42,580 nt of DNA from a virus (lineage: Duplodnaviria > Heunggongvirae > Uroviricota > Caudoviricetes). Numbering within the stretch: position 1 is the stretch's first letter; the number at the start of each line of letters is the position of its first letter. Of this stretch, positions 10,645 through 25,563 are shown in pieces. The notes beneath the pieces were generated by a model. The model saw only the letters and a program-made list of their open reading frames with translations, was not told the origin of the DNA and did no database searches. Position numbers and translations under genes: made by a program. The stretch covers positions 1-42,580 of the IMG/VR virus record IMGVR_UViG_2917393062_000002; one strand, 5' to 3'.

Positions 10645-11037
10645 TTGTCAATAATAAAACTCCTCTTCAGGAGGTTGGAATTTTTGGAGTAATTATGTGG
10701 AAAACTACAGGTGAGAAAGTGATTGTTGCATATGTTAATGGTAATGCGAAATACTCACGTATCGAAATGAGCGGTCAACATGCTCGATTGATTCGTGAGT
10801 AACAGGCATTACAGCAGCCCTTCAGTGAGGGGCTGCGATAATGCAACACAGGAATAAAAACCGGCCAGGGAGAATCCGTTAAAGATCTGCCGGTGGCGAA
10901 AAAGTGCCAGGCGCTCAACCTAAGCTGATTCTCTGTTGAATACAATAATTTTATTTACATCTATGTGAATGCGTAGGGCTTCTGTGATGCACGTCATGTT
11001 AACGATGTATGGATATGCGAATCATTCCCATTTTCAC

Positions 11038-11110
11038 GGGTCCTTCCTGAATTTTGGAACACCGAGGGGATGCGGACACGCAGAAATCGCCAAATTTTTG
11101 CATTTTCATC
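11038..11110 (+). repeat. Copy A of a conserved ~50-90 bp element (GGGTCCTTCCTGAAnnnTGGAACACCGAGGGGATGCGGACnCGCAnAAA...TTTTTGCATTTTCAT)
   Basis: Near-identical to copies at 19365 and 21835; lies about 120-165 bp upstream of helper terS. Confidence 0.6.
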
Positions 11111-11203
11111 GTTCATCACCACCACTGTAATTTATTGATAATGAAAGGTTAAAAAAAAGTTGGTGTCGAAAGTGCTCGTTTTTTGTTCATCACTGGAGGG
11201 TAA

Positions 11204-11704
11204 GTGGATAAGGAACTGAAACACCTTGTTCTTAATGTCAGCCAGTTGGCTGCGCTGTCTGGTGTGCACCGACAGACTGTCGCATCAAGAATCAAAAATG
11301 TCCGAACAGCGGGTGGACATGAAAGTAATCTCAAGCTGTATAAACTTACCGATATTCTGGCAGAGCTAATGAAATTGCCACCGCCTGTCGCTGAAGGGGA
11401 GATGGATCCCCATGACCGAAAAGCCTGGTATCAGTCAGAACGTGAACGCCTGAAATTCGAACAGGAGGTCGGAGAACTGATCCCTGCGTCTGATGTCGCT
11501 CGTGAATTTGCTGAAATGGCAAAGGCTATGGTGCAGGTTCTGGAAACTCTCCCCGATATTCTTGAACGCGATTGTGCTCTTGAGCCTTCGGCTGTCATGC
11601 GGGTGCAAAGCATTATTGATGATCTGCGTGACGAAATTGCACGACGGGTGGCAGATGACAGCAAACAGGAAGATGCAGAGGAGGAAAATCAGGAGGACGA
11701 ATAA
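11204..11704 (+). CDS. terS: Terminase small subunit (helper phage)
   Basis: GTG after GGAGGG; 166 aa; HTH-like N-terminus, acidic C-terminus; stop overlaps terL start; paralogue at 21994..22476. Confidence 0.65.
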   Translation: MDKELKHLVLNVSQLAALSGVHRQTVASRIKNVRTAGGHESNLKLYKLTDILAELMKLPPPVAEGEMDPHDRKAWYQSERERLKFEQEVGELIPASDVAREFAEMAKAMVQVLETLPDILERDCALEPSAVMRVQSIIDDLRDEIARRVADDSKQEDAEEENQEDE

Positions 11705-12699
11705 TGCCTGTGCAGGCGACCGCCAGATCGTTGAAACTGGATACAGGCCAGTTAATTAAAGCGCCGCGCAGAATGCCTGTTGCCGAAGCGGTACAAAAAT
11801 TTATGCGAGTCCCTACATCTGGTGGCAACTCTGTTCCGTGGGATCCGATGGTTGCACCGTATGTGATTGAACCCATGAACTGCCTGTCGTCCCGTGAGTT
11901 TGATGCGGTTGTTTTTGTTGGTCCTGCCCGTACGGGCAAGACTAACGGCCTGATTGATGGCTGGGTGGTTTATAACATTGTCTGCGATCCGTCTGACTTT
12001 TTGCTGGTGCAGATGACGCAGGATAAGGCGCAGGAGCACTCCAAAAAGCGCCTGGCAAGAACATTTCGTTGCAGCCCGGAGGTCAGAAAACGCCTCAGCC
12101 CACGCCGTAACGATAACAACGTTCATGACAAATATTTTCTGTCGGGCAGCTTTCTGAAAATCGGCTGGCCTTCCATCAATGTCATGTCATCCTCTGATTT
12201 TAAATGTGTGGCGCTGACTGATTACGACCGATTTCCTGAAGATATCGATGGCGAAGGTGATGGTTTCTCCCTGGCTTCAAAACGTACCACAACATTTATG
12301 TCAGCTGGTATGACGCTGGTGGAGAGTTCTCCCGGGCGTGAAATCACAAACAGCAAGTGGCGCAGAACGTCACCGCATGAAGCCCCGCCCACCACGGGGA
12401 TCCTTTCTCTGTATAACCGTGGCGATCGTCGTCGCTGGTACTGGCCTTGTCCGGATTGTGGTGATTATTTCCAGCCATCGATGGAGGCTATGACGGGATA
12501 TCGTGACAATCCTGATCCTGTAAAAGCCAGTGAAGCGGCTCATATATTGTGTCCGCATTGTGGCAGTCAAATCACTGCAGATATGAAACGTGAACTGAAT
12601 GGTCGCGGTGTCTGGTTGCGTGAAGGTGAGCAGATTGACAGAGAAGGGAATGTTACCGGAACGCCACGTCATTCAAGGATAGCCAGCTTCTGGATGTAG
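11704..12699 (+). CDS. terL: Terminase large subunit (GpA-like), N-terminal ATPase part, interrupted by island insertion
   Basis: 331 aa with P-loop VGPARTGKT and CPDCG...CPHCG Zn-finger-like motif; ends ...IASFWM then TAG supplied by inserted DNA; continues in frame at 22703 after removing the insertion. Confidence 0.8.
   Translation: MPVQATARSLKLDTGQLIKAPRRMPVAEAVQKFMRVPTSGGNSVPWDPMVAPYVIEPMNCLSSREFDAVVFVGPARTGKTNGLIDGWVVYNIVCDPSDFLLVQMTQDKAQEHSKKRLARTFRCSPEVRKRLSPRRNDNNVHDKYFLSGSFLKIGWPSINVMSSSDFKCVALTDYDRFPEDIDGEGDGFSLASKRTTTFMSAGMTLVESSPGREITNSKWRRTSPHEAPPTTGILSLYNRGDRRRWYWPCPDCGDYFQPSMEAMTGYRDNPDPVKASEAAHILCPHCGSQITADMKRELNGRGVWLREGEQIDREGNVTGTPRHSRIASFWM
12688..12699 (+). other. Left junction (attL-like) with core CTGGATG
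   Basis: TTCTGGATG|TAGGGTACATTTC: terL sequence changes to AT-rich island DNA; same 7-bp core at 22696..22702. Confidence 0.5.
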
Positions 12700-12860
12700 G
12701 GTACATTTCTTACCTGTTTTTATGTTCTGGTGTCGTTTTATAGTCTTTTCAATGAGTTGTGATTTTTTGAGTTTCCTCTCTTTACTTGATAATGAGTTAG
12801 TTTATCGCTTGTTATCGACTTGAATGGACTACATGACGGACTAAAAAATGAGGGCGACAG

Positions 12861-14099
12861 ATGTCGGTAAAGCCATTAACCGTGACTGAAGTTAAGGGGA
12901 TGAAACCACGTGAAAAGGACTATGCTGTTTATGATGGGTTCGGTTTATTGCTGAATGTGAGTAAAGCTGGTGGGAAAGTGTGGCGTTTTCGTTATAGCCA
13001 TCCGATAACGAAGAAACGGCAGACATACACGATAGGGCGTTTTCCTGAATTCTCACTCGCGGAAGCACGGGAAGTACGTGATGAACTTCGGCGAATGATT
13101 GCACGTGGAGTTGATCCAGTGACAGAGAAGAAAAATCGTAAAATTGAGATGGCACTAAAAAATCTACAGACATTTGAATCTGTTGCTAATGCATGGGTTG
13201 CCTTTAAAAAGGGAGCAGAATTGCGGAAGCCTACGTTAAATAACATCGAATATGAAGTATATAAATATCTTGTTCCTTTCTTTGGTAAATATAGTATAGA
13301 TAAGATTACAGCGCCATTAGCAATTAAGATACTGGATGCAGTATCTGATAAAAATGCGTTGCAAAAAAAATTAATATCAAGATTAAATGAAATTATGAAT
13401 TATGCCGTAAATTGTGGTGCGTTAAAAATAAATCCATTGCTTAAAATAAAGACTGCATTCGCTGGAAAGAAAAATAAATCATTGGCTGCGTTACCTATAG
13501 AAAGATTACCTGAATTTCTGAGTTGGTGGGATAGTGTGCCTCATAACTACCAAATAGCGCATAATGCACTTTTATTCCAGGTATTGACCATGGTCAGGCC
13601 GGGAGAGGCGATCCAGGCAGAGTGGTCAGAGATAGATTTTGATGCTGGTCTGTGGGTTATTCCTGAGCATAAAATGAAATGCCATCGTGAACATGTTGTG
13701 CCCCTGTCATCACAGGCCATTAGCATCCTGAGAACAATGCAGGAAATAAAAAGAGGGCGTTATGTATTCTATTCATCCAGAACCAAAGACGCGCCTATGG
13801 GGAGGAAAACTATAAATACTGCGATTACCTCCAGTAAGTTCAAAGGGATTGTAACGTTACATGGTTTTCGTTCGATGTGGAGTACGCTTTTAAATGAGGA
13901 AGGATTTAACCCCGATGTAATTGAGGCTGCATTAGCACATAAAAGTGGTGATAAAATAAGAGATATTTATAATAGAACTACTTATTTAGAACAACGCAAA
14001 ATTATGATGCAATGGGTAGGCGATTTTTTTGATGAGGCGAGAAAAGGGGTAATTAATAGATCCTGTGGTAAGAAAGGTTTGAGAATAGTAAATGGTTGA
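12861..14099 (+). CDS. int: Tyrosine integrase, P4-type
   Basis: 412 aa; P4-type N-terminal arm-binding signature (GGKVWRFRYSHP...FPEFSLAEAREVRDELRRMIARGVDP); C-terminal catalytic region with HGFRS and conserved Tyr; about 160 bp from attL. Confidence 0.85.
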   Translation: MSVKPLTVTEVKGMKPREKDYAVYDGFGLLLNVSKAGGKVWRFRYSHPITKKRQTYTIGRFPEFSLAEAREVRDELRRMIARGVDPVTEKKNRKIEMALKNLQTFESVANAWVAFKKGAELRKPTLNNIEYEVYKYLVPFFGKYSIDKITAPLAIKILDAVSDKNALQKKLISRLNEIMNYAVNCGALKINPLLKIKTAFAGKKNKSLAALPIERLPEFLSWWDSVPHNYQIAHNALLFQVLTMVRPGEAIQAEWSEIDFDAGLWVIPEHKMKCHREHVVPLSSQAISILRTMQEIKRGRYVFYSSRTKDAPMGRKTINTAITSSKFKGIVTLHGFRSMWSTLLNEEGFNPDVIEAALAHKSGDKIRDIYNRTTYLEQRKIMMQWVGDFFDEARKGVINRSCGKKGLRIVNG

Positions 14100-14111
14100 G
14101 GAGTTCAGCAA

Positions 14112-14315
14112 ATGAATACCAATGAAGATATTTTATTTACTAAAGACGTAATGAAAATTTTGCGCTATGGGGCAATGAGCGCATTCATTAATTTCTGGAA
14201 AGATGAAAGCAATGGTTTTCCTCAACCGTTCAGAATTGGGCGGCGGCATACCTGGCACCGTAGAGATGTAGAGGCATGGTTAGATAAACAACGAGAACAG
14301 GCCAATCCCCACTAA
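14112..14315 (+). CDS. AlpA-like small DNA-binding protein (excisionase/regulator candidate)
   Basis: 67 aa; AlpA-like pattern (FPQPFRIGRRHTWHRRDVEAWL); immediately downstream of int. Confidence 0.5.
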   Translation: MNTNEDILFTKDVMKILRYGAMSAFINFWKDESNGFPQPFRIGRRHTWHRRDVEAWLDKQREQANPH

Positions 14316-14374
14316 TAATATCTTTCATACCCCGCACACAATGCGGGGTTTTTTGTATGTGAGGTAAAAAAACG

Positions 14375-14956
14375 ATGAATAAAAATATTGCCGTGACGGG
14401 CAAGGGTGACGCTCGTCCAGTGAAAAATTTCTGCAATATTCGTGATCTAATCGTTCTGCGCTTTGATGGCGTGGATGTTCGCGTGGTGTATCTGAATGGC
14501 GATCCGTGGTTTGTTGCAAAGGATGTTTGTGAAGCTCTGGAAATAAGCAACTCACGCGATGCTCTAAAAGCTCTGGATGTGGATGAGAAGAATACCGTCG
14601 CTTTAAGCTACGGTATTCGCGGAAATCCAAATCATAGCGTCGTTTCTGAATCTGGTTTTTACAAGCTGATCGCCAGAAGTCGCAAAGCTGTTACTCCTGG
14701 CACGTTCGCCCATCGTTTCAGTAATTGGGTATTCAGAAATGTGATACCGGGTATCAGAAAAACGGGGGCTTATGGTATCCCGTGGGGCGCATTACAGGAT
14801 TTTTCCCGCCGTAAAGAGCAATATCAGATAAGTGCCAGCGAGAAGGGGAGGGAGCTACAGGCATGTAAGCGCAAAAAGCGTGAGCTGGAGGAAGAAGAAA
14901 AAAGGCTGATACGTGAATATCAGCCTGAGTTTTACTTTGACAACTGCATTCAGTGA
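14375..14956 (+). CDS. Bro-N domain protein (antirepressor-like)
   Basis: 193 aa; N-terminal Bro-N-like motifs (WFVAKDVCEALEI, SESGFYKLIARSRK, FSNWVFRNVIPGIRKTGAYG). Confidence 0.6.
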   Translation: MNKNIAVTGKGDARPVKNFCNIRDLIVLRFDGVDVRVVYLNGDPWFVAKDVCEALEISNSRDALKALDVDEKNTVALSYGIRGNPNHSVVSESGFYKLIARSRKAVTPGTFAHRFSNWVFRNVIPGIRKTGAYGIPWGALQDFSRRKEQYQISASEKGRELQACKRKKRELEEEEKRLIREYQPEFYFDNCIQ

Positions 14957-15049
14957 CAAAACAAAGGCGACCGGGGGCGGTCGCCAATGGGAAAACACTA
15001 AACATAAGCACGGGGATGATAGCCGCTATCAGGCTGGTGGGCAATGCAA

Positions 15050-15238
15050 TCAGTCTTGTTCAGTTCGTTGCCATACCTGCAATGAGCGCGTTTCCCTGTA
15101 CTCTTTAAGGAATTGCTCAAGGGCAAAAGCACATGGCGCGAATCTTTCTGATTCATGCTCTATCTTTCTGCGCCGTCTTTTCCGTGCCGGTGATAATGTT
15201 TTGGTCAATTCTTTATCGGTCATTGTGTTGTCCTGCAT
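15050..15238 (-). CDS. Hypothetical basic protein, possibly co-transcribed with the RHH-like gene
   Basis: 62-aa minus-strand ORF downstream of the RHH-like gene; weak RBS. Confidence 0.25.
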   Translation of the reverse strand: MQDNTMTDKELTKTLSPARKRRRRKIEHESERFAPCAFALEQFLKEYRETRSLQVWQRTEQD

Positions 15239-15280
15239 AGCAATGCGCCGTAATACCTTACACCACGGCGCTGGTGATGG

Positions 15281-15460
15281 TTATTCCTGCTCTTTGGCCT
15301 TGCGACGCTGGCGGTATTCAACTTCTCGCTTTAATGCTGCTGTTACAAACTGCCCTGTACTTTCACCAGGCATTTTTACCGCCTCAACATTGTTCATAAC
15401 TTCATGCGGAACCCTTGCCGCAACTGTTTGTGATTTTGCGTTTACTGCTTTTGTCGCCAT
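15281..15460 (-). CDS. Small ribbon-helix-helix-like DNA-binding protein (candidate island repressor), 59 aa
   Basis: Minus-strand ATG at 15460 preceded by AAGGGG; MATKAVNAKSQTVAARVPHEVMNNVEAVKMPGESTGQFVTAALKREVEYRQRRKAKEQE (beta-strand then two helices); divergent from operator repeats; below ORF-track cut-off. Confidence 0.4.
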   Translation of the reverse strand: MATKAVNAKSQTVAARVPHEVMNNVEAVKMPGESTGQFVTAALKREVEYRQRRKAKEQE

Positions 15461-15510
15461 GTTGTGTACCCCTTACAAAAAACAAATGCAGTATGCAGGA
15501 AAAAAAATAA

Positions 15511-15562
15511 GTGTTCAACACTTGACGTGTTTAACACCAGGGCTTAAATTGGTGTTCAACAC
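15511..15562 (+). promoter_or_regulatory. Three palindromic operator-like sites GTGTT(C/T)AACAC overlapping a candidate rightward promoter
   Basis: GTGTTCAACAC at 15511 and 15552, GTGTTTAACAC at 15527; TTGACG at 15522 and TTAAAT about 17 bp downstream; between divergent RHH gene and rightward operon. Confidence 0.5.
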
Positions 15563-15658
15563 CTTGTTGATGCAAGGTGCAGAAACGACGAAACCCGGCA
15601 GTGCGCTAACACTAACCGGGCTTCTAACCACCAACGATAGAAAGCGTATCGAGGTAGC

Positions 15659-15866
15659 TATGTTAAATCATACCACACACCCGCAAGGGCGGGACTCGCA
15701 CAACCTGAATAAATACATCTGGCGTTTTATCGCCCTGAGCACGGCACAACCGCGCGTGATTACCATTGAGGCCACCAGCGAACAGGAAGCACGCCAGCAA
15801 TCTCCTGATGGCTGTGTGATGGTATTCGCCGCCCGTATTCGCCAGGGGGTGCACCATGTGCAATAA
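15659..15866 (+). CDS. Hypothetical protein (first gene of rightward island operon)
   Basis: ATG after GAGG; 68 aa C-terminal part of a 317-aa track ORF whose upstream part looks non-coding. Confidence 0.35.
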
Positions 15867-16086
15867 AAACACGCCGGACGCAGCAGGCGAAGCATTGAAA
15901 GTACTGATACATGCGCTTGTGGATATAAATTGCATGGTAGAGATCATGGAGAAGAAATCACAGTCGGAGTACGACAAAAGAAAATTTAAAACAATAAAAA
16001 TAATTACCAAAAACTCACTGACAAAAGCTACAGACATCCTCAATGAGGACACTAAAAGAATCAGGGGGAAACTGTGTGATGCATAA
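15856..16086 (+). CDS. Hypothetical protein
   Basis: 76-aa ORF overlapping upstream stop; AGGGGG upstream. Confidence 0.35.
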   Translation: MCNKNTPDAAGEALKVLIHALVDINCMVEIMEKKSQSEYDKRKFKTIKIITKNSLTKATDILNEDTKRIRGKLCDA

Positions 16087-16306
16087 AATACCTTTTGATG
16101 TTCTTATTCATTCTGAAAACGCATTAATCCGCGCAAAGGAAATGGAGGCATTATTACTTAAGTTAATGGAAGTGCCGGAAAATGGCGATGAATCATATCC
16201 CATGATGTTTTCTGCCGTGCACACATTATTAACGCCAGTAATTAACGAATTAAATACGGTGATGGCAATTCACGAGAATAATAAAACGCATCACACCGGA
16301 GAATAA
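16079..16306 (+). CDS. Hypothetical protein (start 16079, or 16043 per ORF track)
   Basis: In-frame ATG at 16079 preceded by GGGGAAA; overlaps upstream stop. Confidence 0.35.
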   Translation: MHKIPFDVLIHSENALIRAKEMEALLLKLMEVPENGDESYPMMFSAVHTLLTPVINELNTVMAIHENNKTHHTGE

Positions 16307-16311
16307 AAACC

Positions 16312-16611
16312 ATGAAACAGAAAAATTCTGGCTTTACTGCCAGCGGCCTCTCTCGGCCTGAAATCCGCCCCGGCGATATTTTCAAAGATAAATACGGCGG
16401 CACTGTAACGATTAAAAGCGTGGCGGGACGGTGTGTTACTTACCGCCGTGATGGGTACGGCTATGACTGCGTGATGCCTGTTTATCAGTTCCGGCGTGAT
16501 TTTTCTCTGGTACAGAACGCAACACGCGGTAAGCCCACCAGCAGGGAAAAAGCACGGGAAAATATTAAGAAAATAAAAAGCATGCTCAGCGCATCCAGAG
16601 GTAAAAAATGA
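16312..16611 (+). CDS. Hypothetical basic protein
   Basis: 99 aa; GGAG upstream; stop overlaps primase start. Confidence 0.4.
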   Translation: MKQKNSGFTASGLSRPEIRPGDIFKDKYGGTVTIKSVAGRCVTYRRDGYGYDCVMPVYQFRRDFSLVQNATRGKPTSREKARENIKKIKSMLSASRGKK

Positions 16612-18356
16612 AACTGGCACCGAACGTAAAAAAACAGCCTCGCGGAATAAAAAACAAAGACACAGAGGTAATTATTTTCGCGGGTAGTGATGCCTGGTCG
16701 CATGCGCAACAGTGGCAGGAGAAGGACGGTCCCGCATCCGGCGATAATGTGCCGCCTGTGTGGCTTGGGCCAAATCAGCTTGCCGAACTTGATGCGCTGA
16801 AAATTGTTCCGGATGGAAAAAAACGCGTAAGGCTGTACCAGGCCGGAGAACTGGATTTAGTGGAGACCAAAAAGATTGGTCAGAAGCTGGCGGCGGCAGA
16901 TATTCAGGATGCGAATTTTTACCCTGAAGGAATGCACGGTCAGAAGTGTGAAAACTGGCGGCGCTATTTGAATGCTGAGCGTGAAAATATTGCCGCAGGG
17001 CTTACCATGCCGGAGCAGAAAAATACGCAACTGGCACAGATGGCAGACAGTGAGCGCGCACAGATGCTTGCTGGTCGGTTTGATGGCGTATGTGTGCATC
17101 CGGAAAGTGAAATCGTTCACGTCTGGCGCGGCGGGGTATGGTGTCCGGTCAGCACAATGGAACTGAGTCGCGAAATGGTGGCGATTTATTCAGAACATAA
17201 GGCCACTTTCAGCAAGCGCGTAATCAGTAACGCCGTTGAAGCGTTAAAAGTTATTGCCGAACCAATGGGCGAGCCGTCCGGTGATTTGCTGCCGTTCGCC
17301 AATGGTGCGCTTGACCTGAAAACGGGGGAATTTTCCCCGCACTCGCCGGAGAACTGGATCACCACGCACAACGGTATTGAATACACGCCGCCAGTACCAG
17401 GGGAGAATATCCGCGACAACGCGCCAAACTTTCATAAATGGCTTGATCACGCTGCCGGAAAAGATCCGGGCAAGATGATGCGTATATGCGCCGCGCTATA
17501 CATGATTATGGCGAACCGGTACGACTGGCAGATGTTTATTGAGGCCACCGGAGACGGCGGGAGCGGCAAGAGCACTTTCACGCACATAGCCAGCCTTCTG
17601 GCAGGGAAACAGAACACAGTAAGCGCTGAGATGACATCGCTTGATGATGCTGGTGGGCGTGCGCAGGTTGTCGGGAGTCGGCTTATTGTCCTGGCAGACC
17701 AGCCGAAATATACAGGCGAAGGCACGGGCATCAAGAAAATCACGGGCGGCGACCCCGTGGAAATTAACCCGAAATATGAAAAGCGTTTCACAGCGGTAAT
17801 CAGGGCGGTTGTGCTGGCAACCAATAATAACCCGATGATATTCACCGAACGGGCCGGAGGCGTGGCACGTCGTCGCGTGATTTTCCGTTTCGACAATATC
17901 GTCAACGAGGCCGAAAAAGACAGGGAACTACCGGAAAAGATTGCGGCTGAAATCCCCGTCATTATCCGCCGATTACTGGCGAACTTTGCAGACCCTGAAA
18001 AGGCGCGGGCTTTACTACTGGAACAGCGTGACGGTGATGAAGCACTGGCGATAAAGCAGCAAACGGATCCGGTTATTGAGTTTTGCCAGTTCCTGAATTT
18101 TCTGGAGGAAGCACGCGGCCTGATGATGGGCGGCGGTGGCGATTCCGTGAAGTACACGACCAGAAACAGCCTTTACCGCGTCTATCTGGCGTTTATGGCA
18201 TACGCAGGCAGAACCAAACCACTAAACGTAAATGACTTTGGCAAGGCCATGAAGCCAGCCGCAAAAGCTTACGGACATGAATATATTACGCGAAAAATTA
18301 ATGGGGTGACGCAGACTAACGCAATAACAACCGACGATTGCGACGCGTTTTTATAA
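16608..18356 (+). CDS. Primase/helicase-type replication protein (P4 alpha / D5-like NTPase domain)
   Basis: 582 aa; Walker A GDGGSGKST, Walker B-like LIVLAD; immediately followed by an iteron array. Confidence 0.75.
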   Translation: MKLAPNVKKQPRGIKNKDTEVIIFAGSDAWSHAQQWQEKDGPASGDNVPPVWLGPNQLAELDALKIVPDGKKRVRLYQAGELDLVETKKIGQKLAAADIQDANFYPEGMHGQKCENWRRYLNAERENIAAGLTMPEQKNTQLAQMADSERAQMLAGRFDGVCVHPESEIVHVWRGGVWCPVSTMELSREMVAIYSEHKATFSKRVISNAVEALKVIAEPMGEPSGDLLPFANGALDLKTGEFSPHSPENWITTHNGIEYTPPVPGENIRDNAPNFHKWLDHAAGKDPGKMMRICAALYMIMANRYDWQMFIEATGDGGSGKSTFTHIASLLAGKQNTVSAEMTSLDDAGGRAQVVGSRLIVLADQPKYTGEGTGIKKITGGDPVEINPKYEKRFTAVIRAVVLATNNNPMIFTERAGGVARRRVIFRFDNIVNEAEKDRELPEKIAAEIPVIIRRLLANFADPEKARALLLEQRDGDEALAIKQQTDPVIEFCQFLNFLEEARGLMMGGGGDSVKYTTRNSLYRVYLAFMAYAGRTKPLNVNDFGKAMKPAAKAYGHEYITRKINGVTQTNAITTDDCDAFL

Positions 18357-18370
18357 TTTTTGGCAATTGC

Positions 18371-18590
18371 TGTCTACCTTGTCTACCTGATTACATAAAA
18401 GTTGTTTTAATTCAGTGTATTAATTTAGGTAGACAGCTTTTTTTTACTGTCTACAAGCTATCTACACTGTCTACCTGTTTTTGTAGCCAGCCGGAGGGAT
18501 GAGTAGACATCAGGTAGATAGTGGTTTTTTACTGTCTACATCCATTAAACCCGCGTCATTACTGGCCTGAGCATCTATCAGGTAGACAGA
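18371..18590 (+). repeat. Iteron array / candidate island replication origin
   Basis: At least 10 copies of TGTCTAC(C/A) or its complement GGTAGACA in both orientations, interspersed with A/T tracts, directly downstream of the primase/helicase gene. Confidence 0.75.
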
Positions 18591-18645
18591 GTAGACAAGG
18601 TGGGGGTAGGCCTAAAACTTTTTAAACGAGGGGGTAAAAATAAAA

Positions 18646-18903
18646 ATGCACACATCAGAAAAATTTAACAATCAGAAGAAATCACATAACCGCGCCATTG
18701 ACCTTACAGAGCACTGGCTGAGGGTGGCGATAAAAATCATCGACCGCAACGCGGGAGAAGGATACGCGAAAGCGCATCCCGAACTGATAAGCGCATTCAT
18801 GAACACAGCGGCGGCAAACTTTGCCACGCTGACAGAACGGGAGATTGCGGAAGCGGAACAGGTGACAACTATCAACGTTAAAACCGGAGAACAGACAGCA
18901 TGA
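18646..18903 (+). CDS. Hypothetical protein
   Basis: 85 aa; GAGGGGG upstream; stop overlaps SSB start. Confidence 0.4.
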   Translation: MHTSEKFNNQKKSHNRAIDLTEHWLRVAIKIIDRNAGEGYAKAHPELISAFMNTAAANFATLTEREIAEAEQVTTINVKTGEQTA

Positions 18904-19322
18904 CAGCACAGATAGCGGCTTACGGGCGGCTGGTGGCTGACCCGCAGTTAAAGACCACCAGCAAGGGAACACAAATGGCGATGGCGAGTATGGCTGTTCC
19001 CCTGCCGTGCAGCCAGGCCGATGACGGAACGGCGACAATGTGGTTATCCGTCCTGGCGTTTTGCAGACAGGCCGACGCACTGGCAAAACACCGCAAAGGC
19101 GAACTGGTGAGCGTGGCGGGTAACATGCAGGTAAGCCAGTGGACAGGCCAGAACGGCGAAACGCGGCAGGGCTGGCAGGTTATCGCAGACAGCGTAATCA
19201 GTGCGCGAACGGCGCGACCGGGCGGCAAAAAAGGCCAGCAGGGCCAGGCTACTGACGCACTGAACAGGGCAAAACAACAGGCGGGAAATGATGATCCGTA
19301 CGGGGATAACATACCGTTTTAA
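18900..19322 (+). CDS. ssb: Single-stranded DNA-binding protein (SSB-like)
   Basis: 140 aa; OB-fold-like core (LSVLAFCRQADALAKHRKGELVSVAGNMQVSQWTGQNGETRQGWQVIADSV), Gly/Gln linker and acidic tail ending DNIPF like SSB DDDIPF. Confidence 0.7.
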   Translation: MTAQIAAYGRLVADPQLKTTSKGTQMAMASMAVPLPCSQADDGTATMWLSVLAFCRQADALAKHRKGELVSVAGNMQVSQWTGQNGETRQGWQVIADSVISARTARPGGKKGQQGQATDALNRAKQQAGNDDPYGDNIPF

Positions 19323-19338
19323 GCAACGAGTGACAGAA

Positions 19339-19362
19339 GCCGGGATTTTTCCCGGTTTTTTT
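19339..19362 (+). terminator. Rho-independent terminator
   Basis: CCGGG-atttt-CCCGG + TTTTTTT after ssb. Confidence 0.65.
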
Positions 19363-19364
19363 AT

Positions 19365-19450
19365 GGGTCCTTCCTGAAAAATGGAACACCGAGGGGATGC
19401 GGACGCGCAGAAAACGGCTGGTTTTTGCATTTTCATGGTGGCGGCAGCAT
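19365..19450 (+). repeat. Copy B of the conserved element
   Basis: TTTTTTTATGGGTCCTTCCTGAAAAATGGAACACCGAGGGGATGCGGACGCGCAGAAAA...GCAGCAT; identical to copy C over about 55 bp including spacing from the upstream terminator. Confidence 0.6.
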
Positions 19451-19730
19451 GTGTGATAATTAATTGATAATTAAAAATTATTTCTGTTTTCACCTGTACA
19501 ATCTTTTTTCTCCCCCTGTCATCAGACCAGTTTGCAATTAATTGAAATATATAAACAAATTTGTTTTTCACCTGCCAAATGGAGCTGCCTATGTCAAATG
19601 TGATTGGGATTGGTGATGCTTATCACTGGCACACAAAAATGAATATTGCATATTTTGCAATGCAATTGATCATCATTGCATTTTGATCAACACTGCACAC
19701 TTCAAATATCAGTCTGAAACGAGGTGTTAC

Positions 19731-19934
19731 GTGAACGAAAAGAAAGCTGTATCGGTTTATCTCGACAATGAAACGGCGCTTGCCCTGTACCGTTTGCGCG
19801 AAGATATTCGCAAGAAAAATGCAGAAACGGGAATGGATCTTCCCACGCCAACAGTCGGCTGGCTTGCCCGTTCATTGTTGCGTCAAAGCCTGGGAATTAA
19901 GGCAGACAAAAAAGATTTGCCTCATGAGGGGTAA
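19731..19934 (+). CDS. Hypothetical small protein
   Basis: GTG 7 nt after GAGG; 67 aa; immediately upstream of island capsid gene. Confidence 0.35.
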   Translation: MNEKKAVSVYLDNETALALYRLREDIRKKNAETGMDLPTPTVGWLARSLLRQSLGIKADKKDLPHEG

Positions 19935-19936
19935 GG

Positions 19937-21781
19937 TTGATGGAAATTTCATTGTATGAGCCAATCGAAGGCGTAACCGCAAGACAGTTCCGCGATTCAC
20001 TTATGGCTGCAAAAGGCCCGGTTACGGTTGCCATAAACAGCGGTGGCGGAAATGTAACTGACGGCATGGCGATGTTTAACGCCCTGAGAACGTACAAAGG
20101 CCACACGGTCGCAAGAATCGACGGTATCGCCGCATCAATGGCTACCATTGTTGCGCTCGGTGCCCGGCGTGTCGTGATGGCTGATAACGGCTGGTGGATG
20201 ATCCATAACCCGTGGGGCGTTTTTGTTGGTGAATCGGAAGATCTCCGCAAAAAAGCCGACATGATGGAAAAAATCGGCAAGGCAATGCTTGATACCTACG
20301 TTGCCAAAACCGGATTACCGGAATCAGAAATCAAAGCCATGATGGATGCTGAAACATGGCTGACGGCTGAGGAAGCGAAAGAAAAAGGATTTATTGATGA
20401 AATTTATCCGGCAGAGGGACAGGCATTAGCCATGGCCCCTGGTTGCGGATCACTGGTAGAGAAATTTACCAGAACGCCGGAAAGCATCATCGCATCGATG
20501 AAGAAAGGCGACACGGGATCAGCAAACGAAAGAGAGAAGCGAAAAAAAGAAGCCGACGTTTTGTTTGCTTACTGGAAGAATTCTTCGTATGAGTGGTTGC
20601 CAGGAATTGTTGAAGAATTTATCAGCGGTTCCATCACTGCCGAAGAAGCACGTAAAAAACACTTAGAAAAACTGGCGGAAGAGACAACGCCGTGCGCAGG
20701 ACCAGGAGCAATGAACATGTATGCAGGTAACGGTAATATTGTTGGGGATTCAGTAAAAGCGGCGCTTATGGCACGCAGTGGACTGGCGGATGTGGAAAAA
20801 GATAACCGCTATAACGGTTATTCATTGCGGGAACTGGCGCGCGCTTCTCTGGTGGATCGTGGGGTAAGCGGCATTCCAGGTAATCCGCTGGGCATGGTTG
20901 GAATGGCGTTTACTCACAGCAGTAGTGATTTTGGCGGCATTCTTGCGGACGTGGCGCATAAATCATTACTGAAAGGCTGGGAAGATTCGCCGGAGACGTT
21001 CCACGCCTGGACGAAAAAAGGCACTCTGACAGATTTTAAGGTTGCCCATCGTGTTGGTATGGATGGTTTTAAATCTCTGCGAAAAGTTTTGCCAGGCAGC
21101 GAATATAAATACGCGTCCACGTCCGATCGCAGCGAGCCAATTGCACTGGCAACTTATGGCGAACTGTTCAGCATAGATCGCCAGGCAATCATCAATGACG
21201 ACATGAGCGCACTGACTTCAATCCCCCAGCAAATGGGGGCAGCAGCAAGCCGCACAGTCGGGGATCTGGTTTATGCCGTTCTCGTGGCCAATCAGAAGAT
21301 GGGCGATAAAAACCCGCTCTTTGATGCGAAACACAGCAATCTGATTAACAGCGAACTTGATATTCCAGGCCTGAGTGCAGCCCGTAAAGCTATGCGTATG
21401 CAAAAAAATAATGCTGGTGCTGTACTGAATATTCCGCCTCGTTTCCTGTTAGTTCCGGTAGAACTGGAAGACAGAGCAACCCAGCTTATTCGTTCTACGT
21501 CGCTACCAGACGCGCAGAACAGCGGTGTGTTTAACCCATACAATGATGCACTGACAGTAATCACAGAGGCGCGACTTGATGCCGACAGCGTGAAATCCTG
21601 GTATCTGCTTGCGGGTCAGGGAAGTGATACAATTGAAGTCGCTTATCTCGATGGTATTGATACCCCGTACCTGGAACAGCAGCAGGGCTTTACGGTTGAC
21701 GGCGTAACTTTCAAAGTGCGCATTGATGCCGGAGTTTCTCCTCTGGACTGGCGCGGGATGGTTAAGTCATCAGGTGGTTAA
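19937..21781 (+). CDS. Island prohead protease (ClpP-like)-linker-major capsid protein fusion
   Basis: 614 aa; N-terminal ClpP/S14-like domain; C-terminal ~330 aa about 70% identical by eye to the helper capsid domain (GNGNIVGDS...IEVAYLDGIDTPYLEQQQGFTVDG). Confidence 0.8.
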   Translation: MMEISLYEPIEGVTARQFRDSLMAAKGPVTVAINSGGGNVTDGMAMFNALRTYKGHTVARIDGIAASMATIVALGARRVVMADNGWWMIHNPWGVFVGESEDLRKKADMMEKIGKAMLDTYVAKTGLPESEIKAMMDAETWLTAEEAKEKGFIDEIYPAEGQALAMAPGCGSLVEKFTRTPESIIASMKKGDTGSANEREKRKKEADVLFAYWKNSSYEWLPGIVEEFISGSITAEEARKKHLEKLAEETTPCAGPGAMNMYAGNGNIVGDSVKAALMARSGLADVEKDNRYNGYSLRELARASLVDRGVSGIPGNPLGMVGMAFTHSSSDFGGILADVAHKSLLKGWEDSPETFHAWTKKGTLTDFKVAHRVGMDGFKSLRKVLPGSEYKYASTSDRSEPIALATYGELFSIDRQAIINDDMSALTSIPQQMGAAASRTVGDLVYAVLVANQKMGDKNPLFDAKHSNLINSELDIPGLSAARKAMRMQKNNAGAVLNIPPRFLLVPVELEDRATQLIRSTSLPDAQNSGVFNPYNDALTVITEARLDADSVKSWYLLAGQGSDTIEVAYLDGIDTPYLEQQQGFTVDGVTFKVRIDAGVSPLDWRGMVKSSGG

Positions 21782-21807
21782 CAGATAATCAGGCATGTTA
21801 TGTTTTT

Positions 21808-21833
21808 TTGCGGCCTTCGGGCCGCTTTTTTTA
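21808..21833 (+). terminator. Rho-independent terminator
   Basis: GCGGCC-ttcg-GGCCGC flanked by T-runs. Confidence 0.65.
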
Positions 21834-21834
21834 T

Positions 21835-21920
21835 GGGTCCTTCCTGAAAAATGGAACACCGAGGGGATGCGGACGCGCATAAATCGAGAGATTTTTGATA
21901 TTTTATGCGTGCAGCAGCAT
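21835..21920 (+). repeat. Copy C of the conserved element
   Basis: Same core as A and B; about 110-160 bp upstream of island terS. Confidence 0.6.
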
Positions 21921-21993
21921 AAGTTTAATGCTTTGATTTTTAACATTATTGATTTGTTTTGTTGAAAAAGCGACCGTGCAGTGAGGTGGTAAA

Positions 21994-22476
21994 GTGGAAC
22001 TGAGCAAAATGCAGGTTAATGTCTCACAACTGGCAGACCTGGTAGGCATGAATCGAAATCTTGTTTCACGCCGTTTGCGTGAGCTGGAGCTTGTTGGCGG
22101 GAATGGTGAGAATCTTAAACTGTATGAACTCGGTCCGGCACTTCAGGCACTACTGACCCCATCAATGAAAGAAAATGGTGAAATGTCACCACAGGATCGG
22201 AAAGCCTGGTATCAGTCAGAAAATGAAAGGCTGAAATTTGAAGCAGCTTCACGTGAATTACTCCCTGTCGAAGAGGTGGCCCGTGAATATTCATCTCTGG
22301 CTAAAGCCGTAGTCATGGTGCTGGAAACGTTGCCGGATATTCTTGAGCGCGATTGCGCTCTCCAGCCTTCCGCAGTCATACGAGTGCAACGCATTATTGA
22401 TGATCTACGTGATGAAATGGCGAGAAAAATTGCAGAAAGCGATTCAGATAATGGCTGGCCTGCATGTACAAGATGA
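21994..22476 (+). CDS. terS: Island terminase small subunit paralogue
   Basis: 160 aa; C-terminal half almost identical to helper TerS (VLETLPDILERDCAL.PSAV.RVQ.IIDDLRDE), N-terminal HTH region divergent. Confidence 0.65.
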   Translation: MELSKMQVNVSQLADLVGMNRNLVSRRLRELELVGGNGENLKLYELGPALQALLTPSMKENGEMSPQDRKAWYQSENERLKFEAASRELLPVEEVAREYSSLAKAVVMVLETLPDILERDCALQPSAVIRVQRIIDDLRDEMARKIAESDSDNGWPACTR

Positions 22477-22692
22477 GTGAACTGCTGGAAAGAAACGGCT
22501 ACGGGAAAGAACCATTATCGTGATGGTATTGCGATATCAAAATTCATTTATAGCGACATATTTAGCTTTTAATTAGTATTGCCGCCTTTTTTTCTTTTTT
22601 ATCACTTAAACAGGTACTAAATCTTGGACTATGTAGATGGGGCCATAGCAAAATAGTATTTTATAATCATTTAGTTACCTTTTATTTACTTC

Positions 22693-22702
22693 TTCCTGGA
22701 TG
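22693..22702 (+). other. Right junction (attR-like) with core CTGGATG
   Basis: AT-rich island DNA ...TTCTTCCTGGATG|GAAGGGCCGG resumes terL coding sequence. Confidence 0.5.
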
Positions 22703-23827
22703 GAAGGGCCGGCTGCTGCGTATCAGACCTGGGCGCAACTGGTTTACAAACTACTGACTGCTGAGCAGGAATATGAAGCCACAGGCAGTGAGGAAACACT
22801 GAAGGCGGTGATTAACACCGACTGGGGATTACCTTATTTGCCTCGTTCCGCAATGGAGCTGCGTAGTGCGGATGTTCTGATGCAGCGGGCCGAGGACTAC
22901 GGTAAGCGCCTGGTACCGCCGAAAGTACGTTTTCTTATTGCGGCTGTGGACGTGCAGGGCGGGAAGAACCGACGGTTTGTGGTGCAGATTATTGGCTATG
23001 GCGAGGACGGCGAACGCTGGCTGGTGGACCGTTATAACATCCGACAGTCATTGCGCTGCGATGAAAATGGCGAAGCATTACCTGTGCATCCCGGGGCTTA
23101 TCCTGAAGACTGGCAGTTGCTGGTCACCGATGTACTGGAGAAAACGTATCCGCTCCAGTCCGATCCGGCCCGCAGAATGCCTGTACTGGCAATGGCGGTG
23201 GACAGTGGTGGTGAGGACGGGGTGACGGATAACGCCTATAAATTCTGGCGAAAATGTCGTCAGGATGGACTGGGGCGACGGGTTTTTCTGGTAAAGGGAG
23301 ACAGCACGAAACGCCAGAAAATTATCACCATCACACACCCGGATAATACCGGGCGAAGCGATCGTCGTGCTGATGCTCAGGGAAAGGTGCCGGTATATCT
23401 CCTGCAGACAGACCTGCTGAAAGATCAACTAAGCAATAACCTGCAACGTGAAATGCCCGGACCGGGCTACATTCATTTTCCTGACTGGCTCGGGGAGTGG
23501 TTTTATGAAGAGTTGACCTATGAGGAACGCGGTGCTGACGGGAAATGGCGCAAGCCGGGAAAAGGGAATAACGAAGCGTTTGACCTTTTTTGCTATGCCC
23601 ATGCTGTCGCCATTCTGCGTGGCTATGAAAAAATCCGTGACTGGAGCAATCCTCCCCAGTGGGCAAGGGGGCAGGATGCTGATGCGGGGGCTTCAGCAGA
23701 CAGACGTTCTTCCGGCACAGTGGACAAGAAAAACGTTGCCGGAAGAGATGAGCGGCAAAAAGCAGCGTCGCCGGAAGCGTTATCCGGAAACTGGTTATCA
23801 CTACCCCGAAACGGAGGATGGTTGTGA
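22700..23827 (+). CDS. terL: Terminase large subunit, C-terminal (nuclease) part
   Basis: 375 aa GpA-like C-terminal domain; in frame with 11704..12696 once 12697..22702 is removed. Confidence 0.8.
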   Translation: MEGPAAAYQTWAQLVYKLLTAEQEYEATGSEETLKAVINTDWGLPYLPRSAMELRSADVLMQRAEDYGKRLVPPKVRFLIAAVDVQGGKNRRFVVQIIGYGEDGERWLVDRYNIRQSLRCDENGEALPVHPGAYPEDWQLLVTDVLEKTYPLQSDPARRMPVLAMAVDSGGEDGVTDNAYKFWRKCRQDGLGRRVFLVKGDSTKRQKIITITHPDNTGRSDRRADAQGKVPVYLLQTDLLKDQLSNNLQREMPGPGYIHFPDWLGEWFYEELTYEERGADGKWRKPGKGNNEAFDLFCYAHAVAILRGYEKIRDWSNPPQWARGQDADAGASADRRSSGTVDKKNVAGRDERQKAASPEALSGNWLSLPRNGGWL

Positions 23828-24042
23828 AAAAAGATGAGATTTTCCAGATGCTGGTTATCGTGCGTCAGGCATACAGGGATTCCCTGGATGGTAAAAGTGT
23901 GTCTTTTACCGGGGTGAATGGCAGGGCGATCACCAACCATGATCCTGTTGCATTGCGCAGGGAGCTTGAATACTGGGAAAAACGCTGGGCGGCGGCCTGC
24001 CAGCCCACAAGGAAACCGTACAAACTCGCCCGTTTCTCCTGA
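23818..24042 (+). CDS. Head-tail joining protein, lambda gpW-like
   Basis: 74 aa between terL and portal; gpW-like pattern (GKSVSFTGVNGRAIT...RRELEYWEKR). Confidence 0.5.
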   Translation: MVVKKDEIFQMLVIVRQAYRDSLDGKSVSFTGVNGRAITNHDPVALRRELEYWEKRWAAACQPTRKPYKLARFS

Positions 24043-24051
24043 GGTTTTTTT

Positions 24052-25563
24052 ATGGGTTTTTTTGATAAAGCACTTGGCGCAATTGCGCCAGGGTGGGCGG
24101 TTTCGCGCGCCAGAAACAAAATGCTGCTGAGAGCTTATGAGGCGGCGCAGCCTTCACGCCTGAATAAAGCCCGGCGCGAGAGTCGTTCTGCCGAGACTGC
24201 GGTTTTTTCTGCCTGTACCTCGTTAAGGGAGCAGGCCAGGGCGCTGGATGAAGATCACGATATCGTGATTGGTCTGCTGGATAAGCTGGAAGAGCGGGTT
24301 ATTGGCGCGCAGGGGATCCAGGTTGAACCACAACCACTGAGAAGCGATGGCACCCTGCATGAATCGCTGGCAGAGCAGATCTCGGCATTGTGGTCTGAAT
24401 GGTCTGTTCGCCCTGAGGTCACGGGGATGTTCACCCGTCCGGAGGCCGAACGGATGGCATTGCGATCTGCTTTGCGTGATGGCGAGATGTTCGTACAACT
24501 GGTGCGTGGTCCTGTCGCCGGTCTGAATCATTCCACTGTGGTGCCATTATCACTGGAACTTCTCGAAGCAGATTTTGTTCCGGTCAGTCTGAACACGAAC
24601 GCGGGTCAGCAAGTCCGTCAGGGCATTATTCTTAACAACTGGGGGCGGCCTGTAGGGTATCGGGTTTATAAATACCATCCTGCAAATATGCGTGGATTCA
24701 GCGCCGATCTCAAAACTGTTCACGCAGACAGCATGCTTCATCTGGCGATGCGGAAACGGCTTCATCAGGTGAGAGGTGTCAGCCTGTTACATGGTGTGAT
24801 TCGCCGGATTGCTGATCTGAAAGATTACGAAGAATCAGAGCGTGTGGCTGCCCGTATTGCTGCCGCGCTGGGTTTCTACATTAAGCGTGGTGATGCCGCC
24901 AGCTTTCCGACGGATAACGACTGGACACCCACAGAACAAAAACCCCGGTATTTTGATATTTCACCGGGCATGATTTTTGACGAACTGGCCCCCGGTGAAG
25001 ATCTGGGGATGGTGGAGTCGAATCGTCCGAATGTTCATCTTTATGAATTCCGGAACGGGCAGTTGCGTGCTGTGGCTGCCGGAACCCGTGGCAGTTATTC
25101 CAGTATTGCCCGTGACTATAACGGCTCCTACAGTTCGCAGCGTCAGGAGCTGGTGGAAGGTTACGAAGGCTACGGGGTTTTACAGCAGTGGTTTGTCGGT
25201 CAGTACAGCCGCCCGGTGTACCGGGCATGGCTGGAGCAGGCGATACCTTTTCTTGAAATTTCTCCTGATGTGGATATGTCCACACTTTTCAATGCCACTT
25301 ATCTTGGCCCGGTGATGCCGTGGATTGATCCGGTGAAGGAGGCTGCAGCATGGCGGGCCATTCTTCGCGGTGGTGCCGGGACGGAGGCTGAGTGGATACG
25401 TGCCCGTGGGCAGTCACCGCAGGAGGTCAAACGTCAGCGACTGCGTGAAACTGAATTTAACCGGGAAAACGGGCTGGTGTTCGATTCTGACGCCGCTAAC
25501 GATAAAGGAGCGATCCCTGATGCAGCAAATGATAAACCCGCGTCTTCGCGGGACGATGATTAA
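24052..25563 (+). CDS. Portal protein (lambda B-like)
   Basis: 503 aa; size and position between W and protease/capsid; acidic C-terminus. Confidence 0.75.
   Translation: MGFFDKALGAIAPGWAVSRARNKMLLRAYEAAQPSRLNKARRESRSAETAVFSACTSLREQARALDEDHDIVIGLLDKLEERVIGAQGIQVEPQPLRSDGTLHESLAEQISALWSEWSVRPEVTGMFTRPEAERMALRSALRDGEMFVQLVRGPVAGLNHSTVVPLSLELLEADFVPVSLNTNAGQQVRQGIILNNWGRPVGYRVYKYHPANMRGFSADLKTVHADSMLHLAMRKRLHQVRGVSLLHGVIRRIADLKDYEESERVAARIAAALGFYIKRGDAASFPTDNDWTPTEQKPRYFDISPGMIFDELAPGEDLGMVESNRPNVHLYEFRNGQLRAVAAGTRGSYSSIARDYNGSYSSQRQELVEGYEGYGVLQQWFVGQYSRPVYRAWLEQAIPFLEISPDVDMSTLFNATYLGPVMPWIDPVKEAAAWRAILRGGAGTEAEWIRARGQSPQEVKRQRLRETEFNRENGLVFDSDAANDKGAIPDAANDKPASSRDDD

Follow-up and report, generated by a model that had tools for sequence, protein, structure and literature searches.

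The 42,580-nt viral sequence IMGVR_UViG_2917393062_000002 (Caudoviricetes; this whole stretch is called the window below) contains a helper prophage, a satellite island and an element of about 73 nt that occurs three times, once in the helper and twice in the island. Comparison with lambda and other phages points to this element as the part of a lambda-type cohesive-end (cos) site that is recognized by the large terminase subunit, TerL, namely cosQ, a spacer, cosN and the I2 tract, and to three complete cos sites in the window, cos-A belonging to the helper and cos-B and cos-C to the satellite. We put the probability of this reading at about 0.88. A preliminary description of the same DNA had listed a terminase recognition or cos-like site among several possible roles of the element, and it is this alternative that now receives strong support, from identity with the lambda cosQ, from spacing, from alignment with the termini of four phages, from integration host factor (IHF) and R-type elements downstream, from the adjoining GpA-type terminase genes, and from the co-variation of helper and island.

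Three copies of a lambda-type cos core

The 49-nt core of the element, GGGTCCTTCCTGAAWWWTGGAACACCGAGGGGATGCGGACRCGCAKAAA, matches the window exactly three times, always on the plus strand (11038-11086, 19365-19413 and 21835-21883), and not once in 100 dinucleotide-preserving shuffles; in 3/3 copies it is followed by a TTTTTG(C/A)(A/T)ATTTT(C/A)AT block. The number of copies and their gene context are thus as first described: copy A lies 166 nt 5' of the helper gene for the small terminase subunit (terS), copy B lies 5' of the island capsid gene, and copy C is found 159 nt 5' of the island terS. No open reading frame (ORF) is common to the three, again as had been claimed, the sole one to cover a copy being a spurious minus-strand ORF (19044-19571) over B. 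When the copies were aligned with their flanks, the core and the T-rich block proved to be alike, but the likeness between helper and island stops about 73 nt in. Outside this stretch the copies are unrelated, with identities of 54-59% upstream and 57-58% over bp 44-143 downstream, which is the level of alignment noise.

To place the copies on known cos sites, the lambda, cdtI and Tritos records were each closed end to start, and the junctions were aligned to the copies. The heptamer GGGTCCT, present in all three copies, also opens the final 30 nt of the lambda record, where it is the cosQ of lambda. From this heptamer to the predicted nick there are 29 nt in the window copies, cdtI and Tritos, and 30 nt in lambda. 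Its position and its 7-bp length fit cosQ as described by the Feiss laboratory, who reported cosQ to be 7 bp long and highly conserved (PMC4669245). With slashes set at the nicks, the alignment rows read ACGGGTCCTTTCCGGTGATCCGACAGGTTACG/GGGCGGCGACCT/CGCGGG for lambda, GGGTCCTTCCGGTGGGGTGGCCTGCCACG/GGGCGGGAGCGT/CGCGG for cdtI and GGGTCCTTCCTGAAAAATGGAACACCGAG/GGGATGCGGACG/CGCAG for the window. The lambda, cdtI and Tritos records start at positions aligned to window 11067, 19394 and 21864, and the 12-nt 5' cohesive end predicted for the window from this alignment is GGGATGCGGAC(A/G). In Hafnia phage yong2, deposited as a linear record, the spacer is near-identical (TTTCTGAGTTTTGAAACACCGAG) and the record ends exactly 12 nt after it: its last letters are ...GAAACACCGAGGGGGCAGCGACA and its first CGCGGGAAACGG, and the break falls at the right edge of the predicted 12-mer, aligned to 11078/11079. 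Both edges of the predicted cohesive end are therefore marked by deposited termini, the left one by the starts of lambda, cdtI and Tritos and the right one by the end of yong2.

When 19 diverse cos sequences are compared, the columns without any change are those of cosQ, of the GG that opens the cohesive end, of the CGC that follows it and of the T-tract, and this is the pattern of conservation reported for lambda-like cos sites (PMC4669245). The same set of sequences bears on a very different reading of the element, as a structured RNA, such as a processing site or a put-like antiterminator, that would arise from the nested GTCC/GGAC and TTCC/GGAA pairs of the preliminary description. Such pairs can indeed be drawn in the window's type of sequence, and the minimum-free-energy folds of copies A and C contain the outer GTCC/GGAC helix. 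However, these folds lack the proposed TTCC/GGAA helix and are not unusually stable (z-scores from -1.45 to +0.71); the proposed pairs are formed in 58.6% of the cells over the 19 cos variants, as against 61.8% and 65.1% in slid controls; and conservation falls on cosQ and the nick-flanking bases, not on the paired columns. Rfam gave no match on the element, whether the entire window was searched at the gathering threshold or the neighbourhood of the copies at E<=1, and the weak hits were to adjacent terminators only. The proposed fold is accordingly given up, and we find a structured RNA at this place scarcely credible.

The surroundings of the copies are of the cosB type, with R-type repeats and an IHF consensus next to cosN; a terS gene follows copies A and C and a terS stump follows B. 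The IHF consensus, WATCAANNNNTTR, is on the minus strand at bp 62-76 in copies A, B and C. In cos-A the repeats come in the order R3-like, inverted R2-like and R1-like, which is the R3-I1-R2-R1 layout of lambda cosB, with direct repeats instead in cos-B and cos-C. A TerL of the GpA family is also encoded beside the cos sites, in two fragments that flank the island and carry the GpA_ATPase (E 4.7e-80) and GpA_nuclease (E 1e-85) domains.

The gene context had also suggested a shared late promoter or a Q-antitermination (qut-like) site, through which the island would ride on the late transcription of the helper. In fact, all three copies precede late-type genes and the island is co-oriented with the helper late operon; since B and C follow terminators, some read-through mechanism would be needed for co-transcription. 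On the other hand, a scan for sigma-70-like promoters over 18800-22800 gave none, where 5.4 were expected from shuffles, and the only promoter-like site near A is upstream of it on the opposite strand. The Q protein of lambda-like phages modifies RNA polymerase a single time, when it is at the late promoter. The Q-like antiterminator gene of the helper (phrog_79) is located at 6216-6596, and the Q-loading site is therefore expected about 4.4 kb upstream of copy A. Moreover, the element can be aligned base for base with cos sites of other phages, lambda among them, and the alignment takes in the ends of their genomes. A role as late promoter or antitermination site appears very improbable on this evidence.

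A satellite inserted in the helper terL gene

The division of the window into helper and island was correct in the preliminary description, which missed, however, that the island lies inside the helper terL. E. coli P393-F10 carries a prophage without the island, which matches window 11037-12696 and 22692-25702 at 98% identity; its homology to the helper begins exactly at 11037/11038, and the two matching blocks meet at a CTGGATG core. Excision in silico at CTGGATG gives a single TerL ORF of 705 aa in which GpA_ATPase and GpA_nuclease are rejoined, and this product equals the uninterrupted TerL of P393-F10 at 705/706 translated positions, with the stop codon counted. The attachment (att) core itself sits exactly at the boundary between the two TerL domains. 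The island of 10,006 bp, a size within the 10-20 kb given for helper-embedded islands, carries the gene set of a phage-inducible chromosomal island (PICI), namely an integrase, a small helix-turn-helix (HTH) protein, Bro-N, a primase/replication module and a late zone; all its named genes run in one direction, on the plus strand, and are also co-oriented with the helper late operon. Its small HTH protein is a weak HTH_17 match, a candidate for the AlpA-like HTH of the PICI gene set. The same island/terL junction was found in 95/5,426 complete E. coli genomes (about 2%). A search of contigs with the island integrase returned only integrases of about 40% identity, from marine bacteria.

The window comes from Escherichia sp005843885 (assembly GCA_004745115.1, contig PDHZ01000026.1), and the same contig has, in another prophage, a second and already published helper-embedded PICI (HE-PICI), Ese18.15.A_Terminase_1_246, at 199942-215384; the source genome thus has at least two helper-embedded satellites. 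In the parts of the HE-PICI paper (PMC10111431; text and supplementary data) that were accessible to us, the other island on PDHZ01000026.1 is named and the island of the window was not found. An island of the same type is located off-target in E. coli RM10410 (our locus L051, 11174-21834), between the chromosomal genes pgrR and mppA and without flanking terL. In E. coli O145:H28 strain 16003 (L058), the island-bearing helper is an Stx2-encoding prophage, with stxA2 and stxB2 about 6 kb upstream of its cos.

Cohesive-end types in related composites

Cohesive ends were compared in 14 helper/island composites, the window and 13 E. coli loci, a small sample whose members are related by descent. 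Three types of cosN were distinguished: T1, GGGATGCGGAC(A/G), that of the window; T2, GGGCGGGCGGCG; and T3, GGGCGGGAGCG(T/G). The island has the cosN type of its helper in 11/14 composites, as against 5.9 expected (permutation p ~0.003, with kinship ignored). The nuclease fragment of TerL clusters strictly by the cosN type of the helper, with identities of 97-100% among T3 fragments and 100% among those of T2, as compared with 72-73% for T2 against T3 and 62-64% for T1 against either; the clusters of the ATPase (N) fragment are different and apparently follow TerS type.

The most informative comparison is that of cos-B of the window with the B copies of the E. coli islands. The identity is 91-96% upstream and 90-94% from bp 13 to 143; it is as low as 43-50% over the spacer and 50-75% over the cohesive end, two parts that together are 86-92% identical to the helper copy of the window. 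Judging by these identities, a cassette of about 34 bp, made up of spacer and cohesive end, has been exchanged in the island for the version of the resident helper; the exchange could be due to selection, to gene conversion, or to both. A megablast search with the 73-nt element found no match in complete E. coli genomes, because the cosN variant of the window is absent there, and a search of these genomes in distant mode found variants of about 80% identity in 933 genomes. Exact-pattern scans of IMG/VR and metagenomes yielded only seven further type-1 cos loci, none of which has both helper and island.

Several observations weigh against the identification of the element as cos. The nick positions of all copies come from alignment, and the cdtI, Tritos and yong2 termini are the ends of deposited records, of whatever derivation (a literature search on the termini of Hafnia phage yong2 found no paper). 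The two-fold symmetry of the predicted cosN is weak, at 6/16 positions, compared with 10/16 in lambda and 4 expected by chance; a scan for another cosN register gave no better centre in the GC-rich core, the best symmetric spots being A/T tracts. The left nick is flanked by AG, where CG is conserved, and the cohesive end departs from the lambda group at positions 4-5, which belong to the half reported to be under selection (PMC4669245). In each island, B and C have private substitutions in common, which points to concerted evolution, and their identity could come from gene conversion between direct repeats, not from selection on both. Finally, in 3/14 composites the cosN type of the island is unlike that of the helper. 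These three (L046, from E. coli W24; L047, from 2014C-3655; and L061, from O121:H19 FWSEC0006) are T2 islands without TerS in Qin-like T3 prophages, and may have been left stranded there by a helper that is non-cognate or defective.

TerS, cosB and initiation specificity

The island and helper TerS proteins are 42% identical over the N-terminal 65 aa, the DNA-binding region, and 63% over the C-terminal 60 aa, a region that, by analogy with lambda, is presumably the TerL-binding part. Across loci, the DNA-binding class of TerS co-varies with the sequence at the R3 position: CATCA(C/T)CA(C/T)CA goes with the TerS class LNxSQLAAxxGxxRQT, GGCGGCAGCATG with the cdtI/Tritos class, and GTGCAGCAGCAT with the TerS of the window island. 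The stump that follows cos-B (MELPMSNVIGIGDAY...) resembles the N-terminus of the cdtI TerS (MELLMSNVSGIGDAYYW), and looks like what is left of the terS of a captured helper cos-terS module, cos-B itself having the look of a captured helper cos.

A close relative of the helper in IMG/VR (L056, from 2148, set against window 11038) is 98-99% identical upstream of the element and through cosQ, cosN and I2. Right behind I2 it switches to another cosB and TerS, so that cosB has been swapped naturally within the helper lineage. It could be argued from such breakpoints that the element is a recombination junction, a conserved linker for the exchange of modules between phage and satellite with no packaging role in the island, as the homology of related helpers starts or ends exactly at it (P393-F10 from 11037/8, the L056 helper up to I2 only). 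Yet module boundaries at the element are also expected of a functional cos, and a mere linker leaves unexplained why cosQ is so precisely spaced, why the element matches the termini of phages, why IHF and R elements are present and why the type of TerL nuclease is tracked. We regard it as most unlikely.

Some islands carry a conserved 93-aa ORF just 3' of their cos (L007, 13447-13728, with homologues in L046-L050, L058, L059 and L061). It is present in TerS-less islands and in some with TerS, has no Pfam match, and has as its PHROGs match phrog_1561, a family without assigned function; it may redirect packaging in the manner of Rpp, the small TerS-binding protein of a published PICI discussed below.

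Two cos sites in one island

In the excised circle of 10,006 bp, cos-B and cos-C are 2,470 bp and 7,536 bp apart. The second of them is paired with the island's own TerS, and cos-B carries a cosB of the cdtI/Tritos type. This raises the question of whether both are in use. It might be supposed that only cos-A and one island copy are functional, cos-B being an inert remnant of the captured cos-terS module that gene conversion has kept similar to cos-C. The 35-codon stump of a cdtI-type terS behind cos-B, a cosB class that fits neither TerS encoded in the window, and the private substitutions common to B and C would all agree with this; some related islands have a single cos (L007, L046-L048 and L050; relatives outside the B-capsid-C group have one cos and no TerS), and in the PICI EcCICFT073 cos2 is dispensable and its deletion raises transfer. 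However, the cosQ, spacer, cosN, I2 tract and IHF consensus of cos-B are all intact, its cosN cassette has been exchanged for that of the helper between flanks that are still 91-96% identical to E. coli islands, and six independent composites, as well as several metagenomic islands, preserve the order B-capsid-C. Termination in lambda, moreover, needs only cosQ, cosN and I2 (PMC4669245), all of which B has. We hold an inert cos-B to be the less likely case.

Proposed mechanism

The following sequence of events would account for the arrangement. On induction, the island would excise at CTGGATG and so rejoin the GpA ATPase and nuclease halves of the helper terL; here the restoration of the ORF was computed in silico and the timing of excision is taken from published HE-PICI work. 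The helper TerL, being the only large terminase available, would then nick cosN to leave 12-nt 5' ends, GGGATGCGGAC(A/G), and would also need cosQ and I2 for packaging termination. The island, having no terL, must therefore present the cosQ, spacer, cosN and I2 of the helper, and the conserved block is about 73 nt long because the subsites for nicking and termination must be carried in the helper version. Specificity of initiation would reside in cosB, bound by TerS, and with a TerS of its own (divergent in the DNA-binding N-terminus and helper-like in the C-terminus) and its own cosB at cos-C, island DNA would be selectable in competition with that of the helper. As a captured helper cos, cos-B could still serve the helper TerL as a termination site, and could initiate packaging with helpers that have a TerS of the cdtI/Tritos type.

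From these sequence comparisons it is likely that the helper TerL cuts the shared cosQ/cosN while the island TerS and cosB redirect initiation. A more far-reaching proposal, which we put forward tentatively and hold to be rather doubtful, is that the satellite cos is a modular device, in which a cosN cassette of about 34 bp follows the GpA nuclease clade and two cosB specificities address the island's own TerS and a helper TerS of the cdtI/Tritos type. If so, several helper lineages could package one 10-kb island, and termination could occur at either of two phases of its concatemer, with possible unit lengths of n x 10.0 kb, plus 2.5 kb or plus 7.5 kb, and the insertion at the terL domain boundary would make production of the cos-cutting enzyme depend on excision of the island.

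Relation to known systems

The cos of lambda, with its Nu1/gpA terminase, is similar to those of the window in the GGGTCCT cosQ, in a 12-nt end (a predicted one in the window) that starts with GGG and is followed by CGC, in an A/T-rich tract of the I2 kind, in the IHF site and R-type repeats that precede terS, and in a TerL of the GpA family. It differs in the cohesive end itself (GGGATGCGGAC(A/G) in the window, GGGCGGCGACCT in lambda, the left half differing too), in the left flank (AG versus CG), in symmetry (6/16 versus 10/16) and in TerS, that of the window being a DUF1441 protein only about 26-28% identical to Nu1 over the N-terminus.

Among satellites, the cos sites of PICIs have been reported to share cosQ, cosN and spacing with those of their helpers (Fillol-Salom 2018, PMC6092414; 2019, PMC6739421; Murialdo & Feiss 2022, PMC9026076). 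In particular, EcCICFT073 has two functional cos sites with a cosN identical to that of the inducing phage and a different cosB; the cosB regions of the two differ, only cos1 is needed, and deletion of cos2 increases transfer (PMC6092414; PMC6739421; PMC9026076). The window island resembles such PICIs in having two predicted cos sites with helper-matching cosQ/cosN, conserved spacing and a non-helper cosB. Unlike EcCICFT073, which uses Rpp, it encodes a full-length DUF1441 TerS, and it lies inside the terL of its helper instead of at a chromosomal location. A cos region of 258 bp common with the helper has been described for the HE-PICI 11capE (Tommasini, Mageeney & Williams 2023, PMC10111431). 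With HE-PICIs the island shares the integrase, small HTH, Bro-N, primase and capsid-bearing late zone, a place within a late gene of the helper in the same orientation, a short block of identity at att, restoration (here in silico) of the interrupted gene on excision and the cos region common with the helper. It differs from them in its site, at the GpA_ATPase/GpA_nuclease boundary and not at a Terminase_1 site: in those parts of the text and supplementary data of PMC10111431 that were accessible, no site name contains 'GpA', and the gene A sites found are all of the Terminase_1 profile. TerS redirection of the type used by Staphylococcus aureus pathogenicity islands (SaPIs) is similar in that the satellite gives the specificity subunit and the recognition site and borrows the catalytic subunit of the helper (PMC6092414). 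The window system is, however, of the cos type, whereas SaPIs of that type are packaged by headful (pac), so that here the cleavage site must also match the helper enzyme.

A shared cosQ/cosN with a divergent cosB, and two cos sites, have already been published for a Gram-negative PICI, and no new principle is involved. The new details are the divergent cosN variant (left half and AG flank), a full-length satellite TerS instead of Rpp, the att site at the GpA ATPase/nuclease boundary, which is not among the HE-PICI site names in the accessible parts of the published list, and mosaicism at the level of the cassette. The repeat is explained by known biology, in that the satellite carries the cleavage and termination signals of the borrowed terminase together with an initiation signal of its own. 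What the comparison of loci contributes is a sharp mosaic boundary between the subsites read by TerL (cosQ, spacer, cosN, I2) and the one read by TerS (cosB), and a cosN type that tracks the GpA nuclease clade; the composites are natural chimeras for the cosN specificity of lambda-like terminases. The family of islands in the GpA terL includes one in an Stx2-encoding helper prophage (E. coli O145:H28), and these findings also bear on the mobilization of satellites in Shiga-toxin phage backgrounds.

Other features of the window

Coordinates of the cos sites, the island and the adjoining helper genes are collected in Table 1.

Table 1. Features of the helper and of the satellite in the window (predicted nicks and cohesive ends are from alignment).
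Feature	Position	Strand	Basis or remark
cos-A, helper prophage cos	11038-11203	+	pattern, alignment, IHF/repeat scans
cos-A cosQ GGGTCCT	11038-11044	+	lambda alignment
cos-A spacer	11045-11066		
cos-A predicted 12-nt cohesive end GGGATGCGGACA	11067-11078		alignment
cos-A I2-like A/T tract	11079-11109		
cos-A R3-like GTTCATCACC	11111-11120		bp 45
cos-A IHF consensus	11128-11140	-	
cos-A inverted R2-like	11161-11170		bp 95
cos-A direct R1-like	11185-11194		bp 119
Helper TerS	11204-11704	+	DUF1441 / phrog_141
Helper terL N-terminal fragment	11704-12699	+	GpA_ATPase domain; 331-aa ORF, truncated by island
attL core CTGGATG	12690-12696	+	
PICI-type helper-embedded satellite	12697-22702	+	10,006 bp
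Island integrase	12861-14099	+	
Island small HTH	14112-14315	+	weak HTH_17
Island Bro-N	14375-14956	+	
Island DUF4222	16312-16611	+	
Island D5-type primase	16608-18356	+	
Island SSB	18900-19322	+	
Terminator-like hairpin CCGGGA-TTTT-TCCCGG and seven T	19340-19362	+	hairpin 19340-19355, T-run 19356-19362
cos-B, first island cos	19365-19578	+	
cos-B cosQ	19365-19371	+	
cos-B predicted cohesive end GGGATGCGGACG	19394-19405	+	alignment; then I2-like tract
cos-B cosB, cdtI/Tritos type			IHF consensus 19457-19469; direct repeats TTTTCACCTG at bp 94 and 172
Remnant 5' end of cdtI/Tritos-type terS	19579-19686	+	35 codons (MELPMSNVIGIGDAY...)
Island ClpP-like prohead protease / major capsid protein fusion	19937-21781	+	between cos-B and cos-C
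Intrinsic-terminator-like hairpin GCGGCC-TTCG-GGCCGC and T-run	21810-21832	+	hairpin 21810-21825, T-run 21826-21832; 2 nt before cos-C
cos-C, second island cos	21835-21993	+	
cos-C cosQ	21835-21841	+	
cos-C predicted cohesive end GGGATGCGGACG	21864-21875	+	alignment; then I2-like tract
cos-C cosB, island-specific			CGTGCAG at bp 45 and 111; IHF consensus 21926-21938
Island TerS	21994-22476	+	DUF1441
attR core CTGGATG	22696-22702	+	
Helper terL C-terminal fragment	22703-23827	+	GpA_nuclease domain, the part expected to nick cosN

The two island copies had been said to start 2 nt after the T-run of an intrinsic terminator, and this is the case for both, the order being a GC hairpin, seven T and then AT. 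The hairpin before cos-C is listed by the terminator scan; the one before cos-B is absent from that list and was read directly from the sequence. The latter closes the SSB/replication module 2 nt before cos-B, and the same arrangement is seen in the E. coli islands. In every cos examined, a T-rich tract and 2-3 nt precede GGGTCCT (in the window at 11029-11037, 19356-19364 and 21826-21834); up to the heptamer this flank reads CACTTTAC in lambda and CATTTTCAC and CATTTTTGC in helpers, and in the islands the terminator T-run fills that place. The spacing of 2 nt may thus partly reflect a conserved context flanking cosQ.

Upstream in the helper, the Q-like gene is followed by tRNA-Thr(TGT) and tRNA-Gly(TCC) at 7373-7448 and 7452-7526, where the late promoter region of the helper is expected. 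In the helper early region, Rfam gave two matches at gathering level side by side, isrK (an Hfq-binding small RNA) at 2695-2772 and C4 antisense RNA at 2796-2880, a pair that suggests an antisense immunity module of the P1/P7 type in the prophage.

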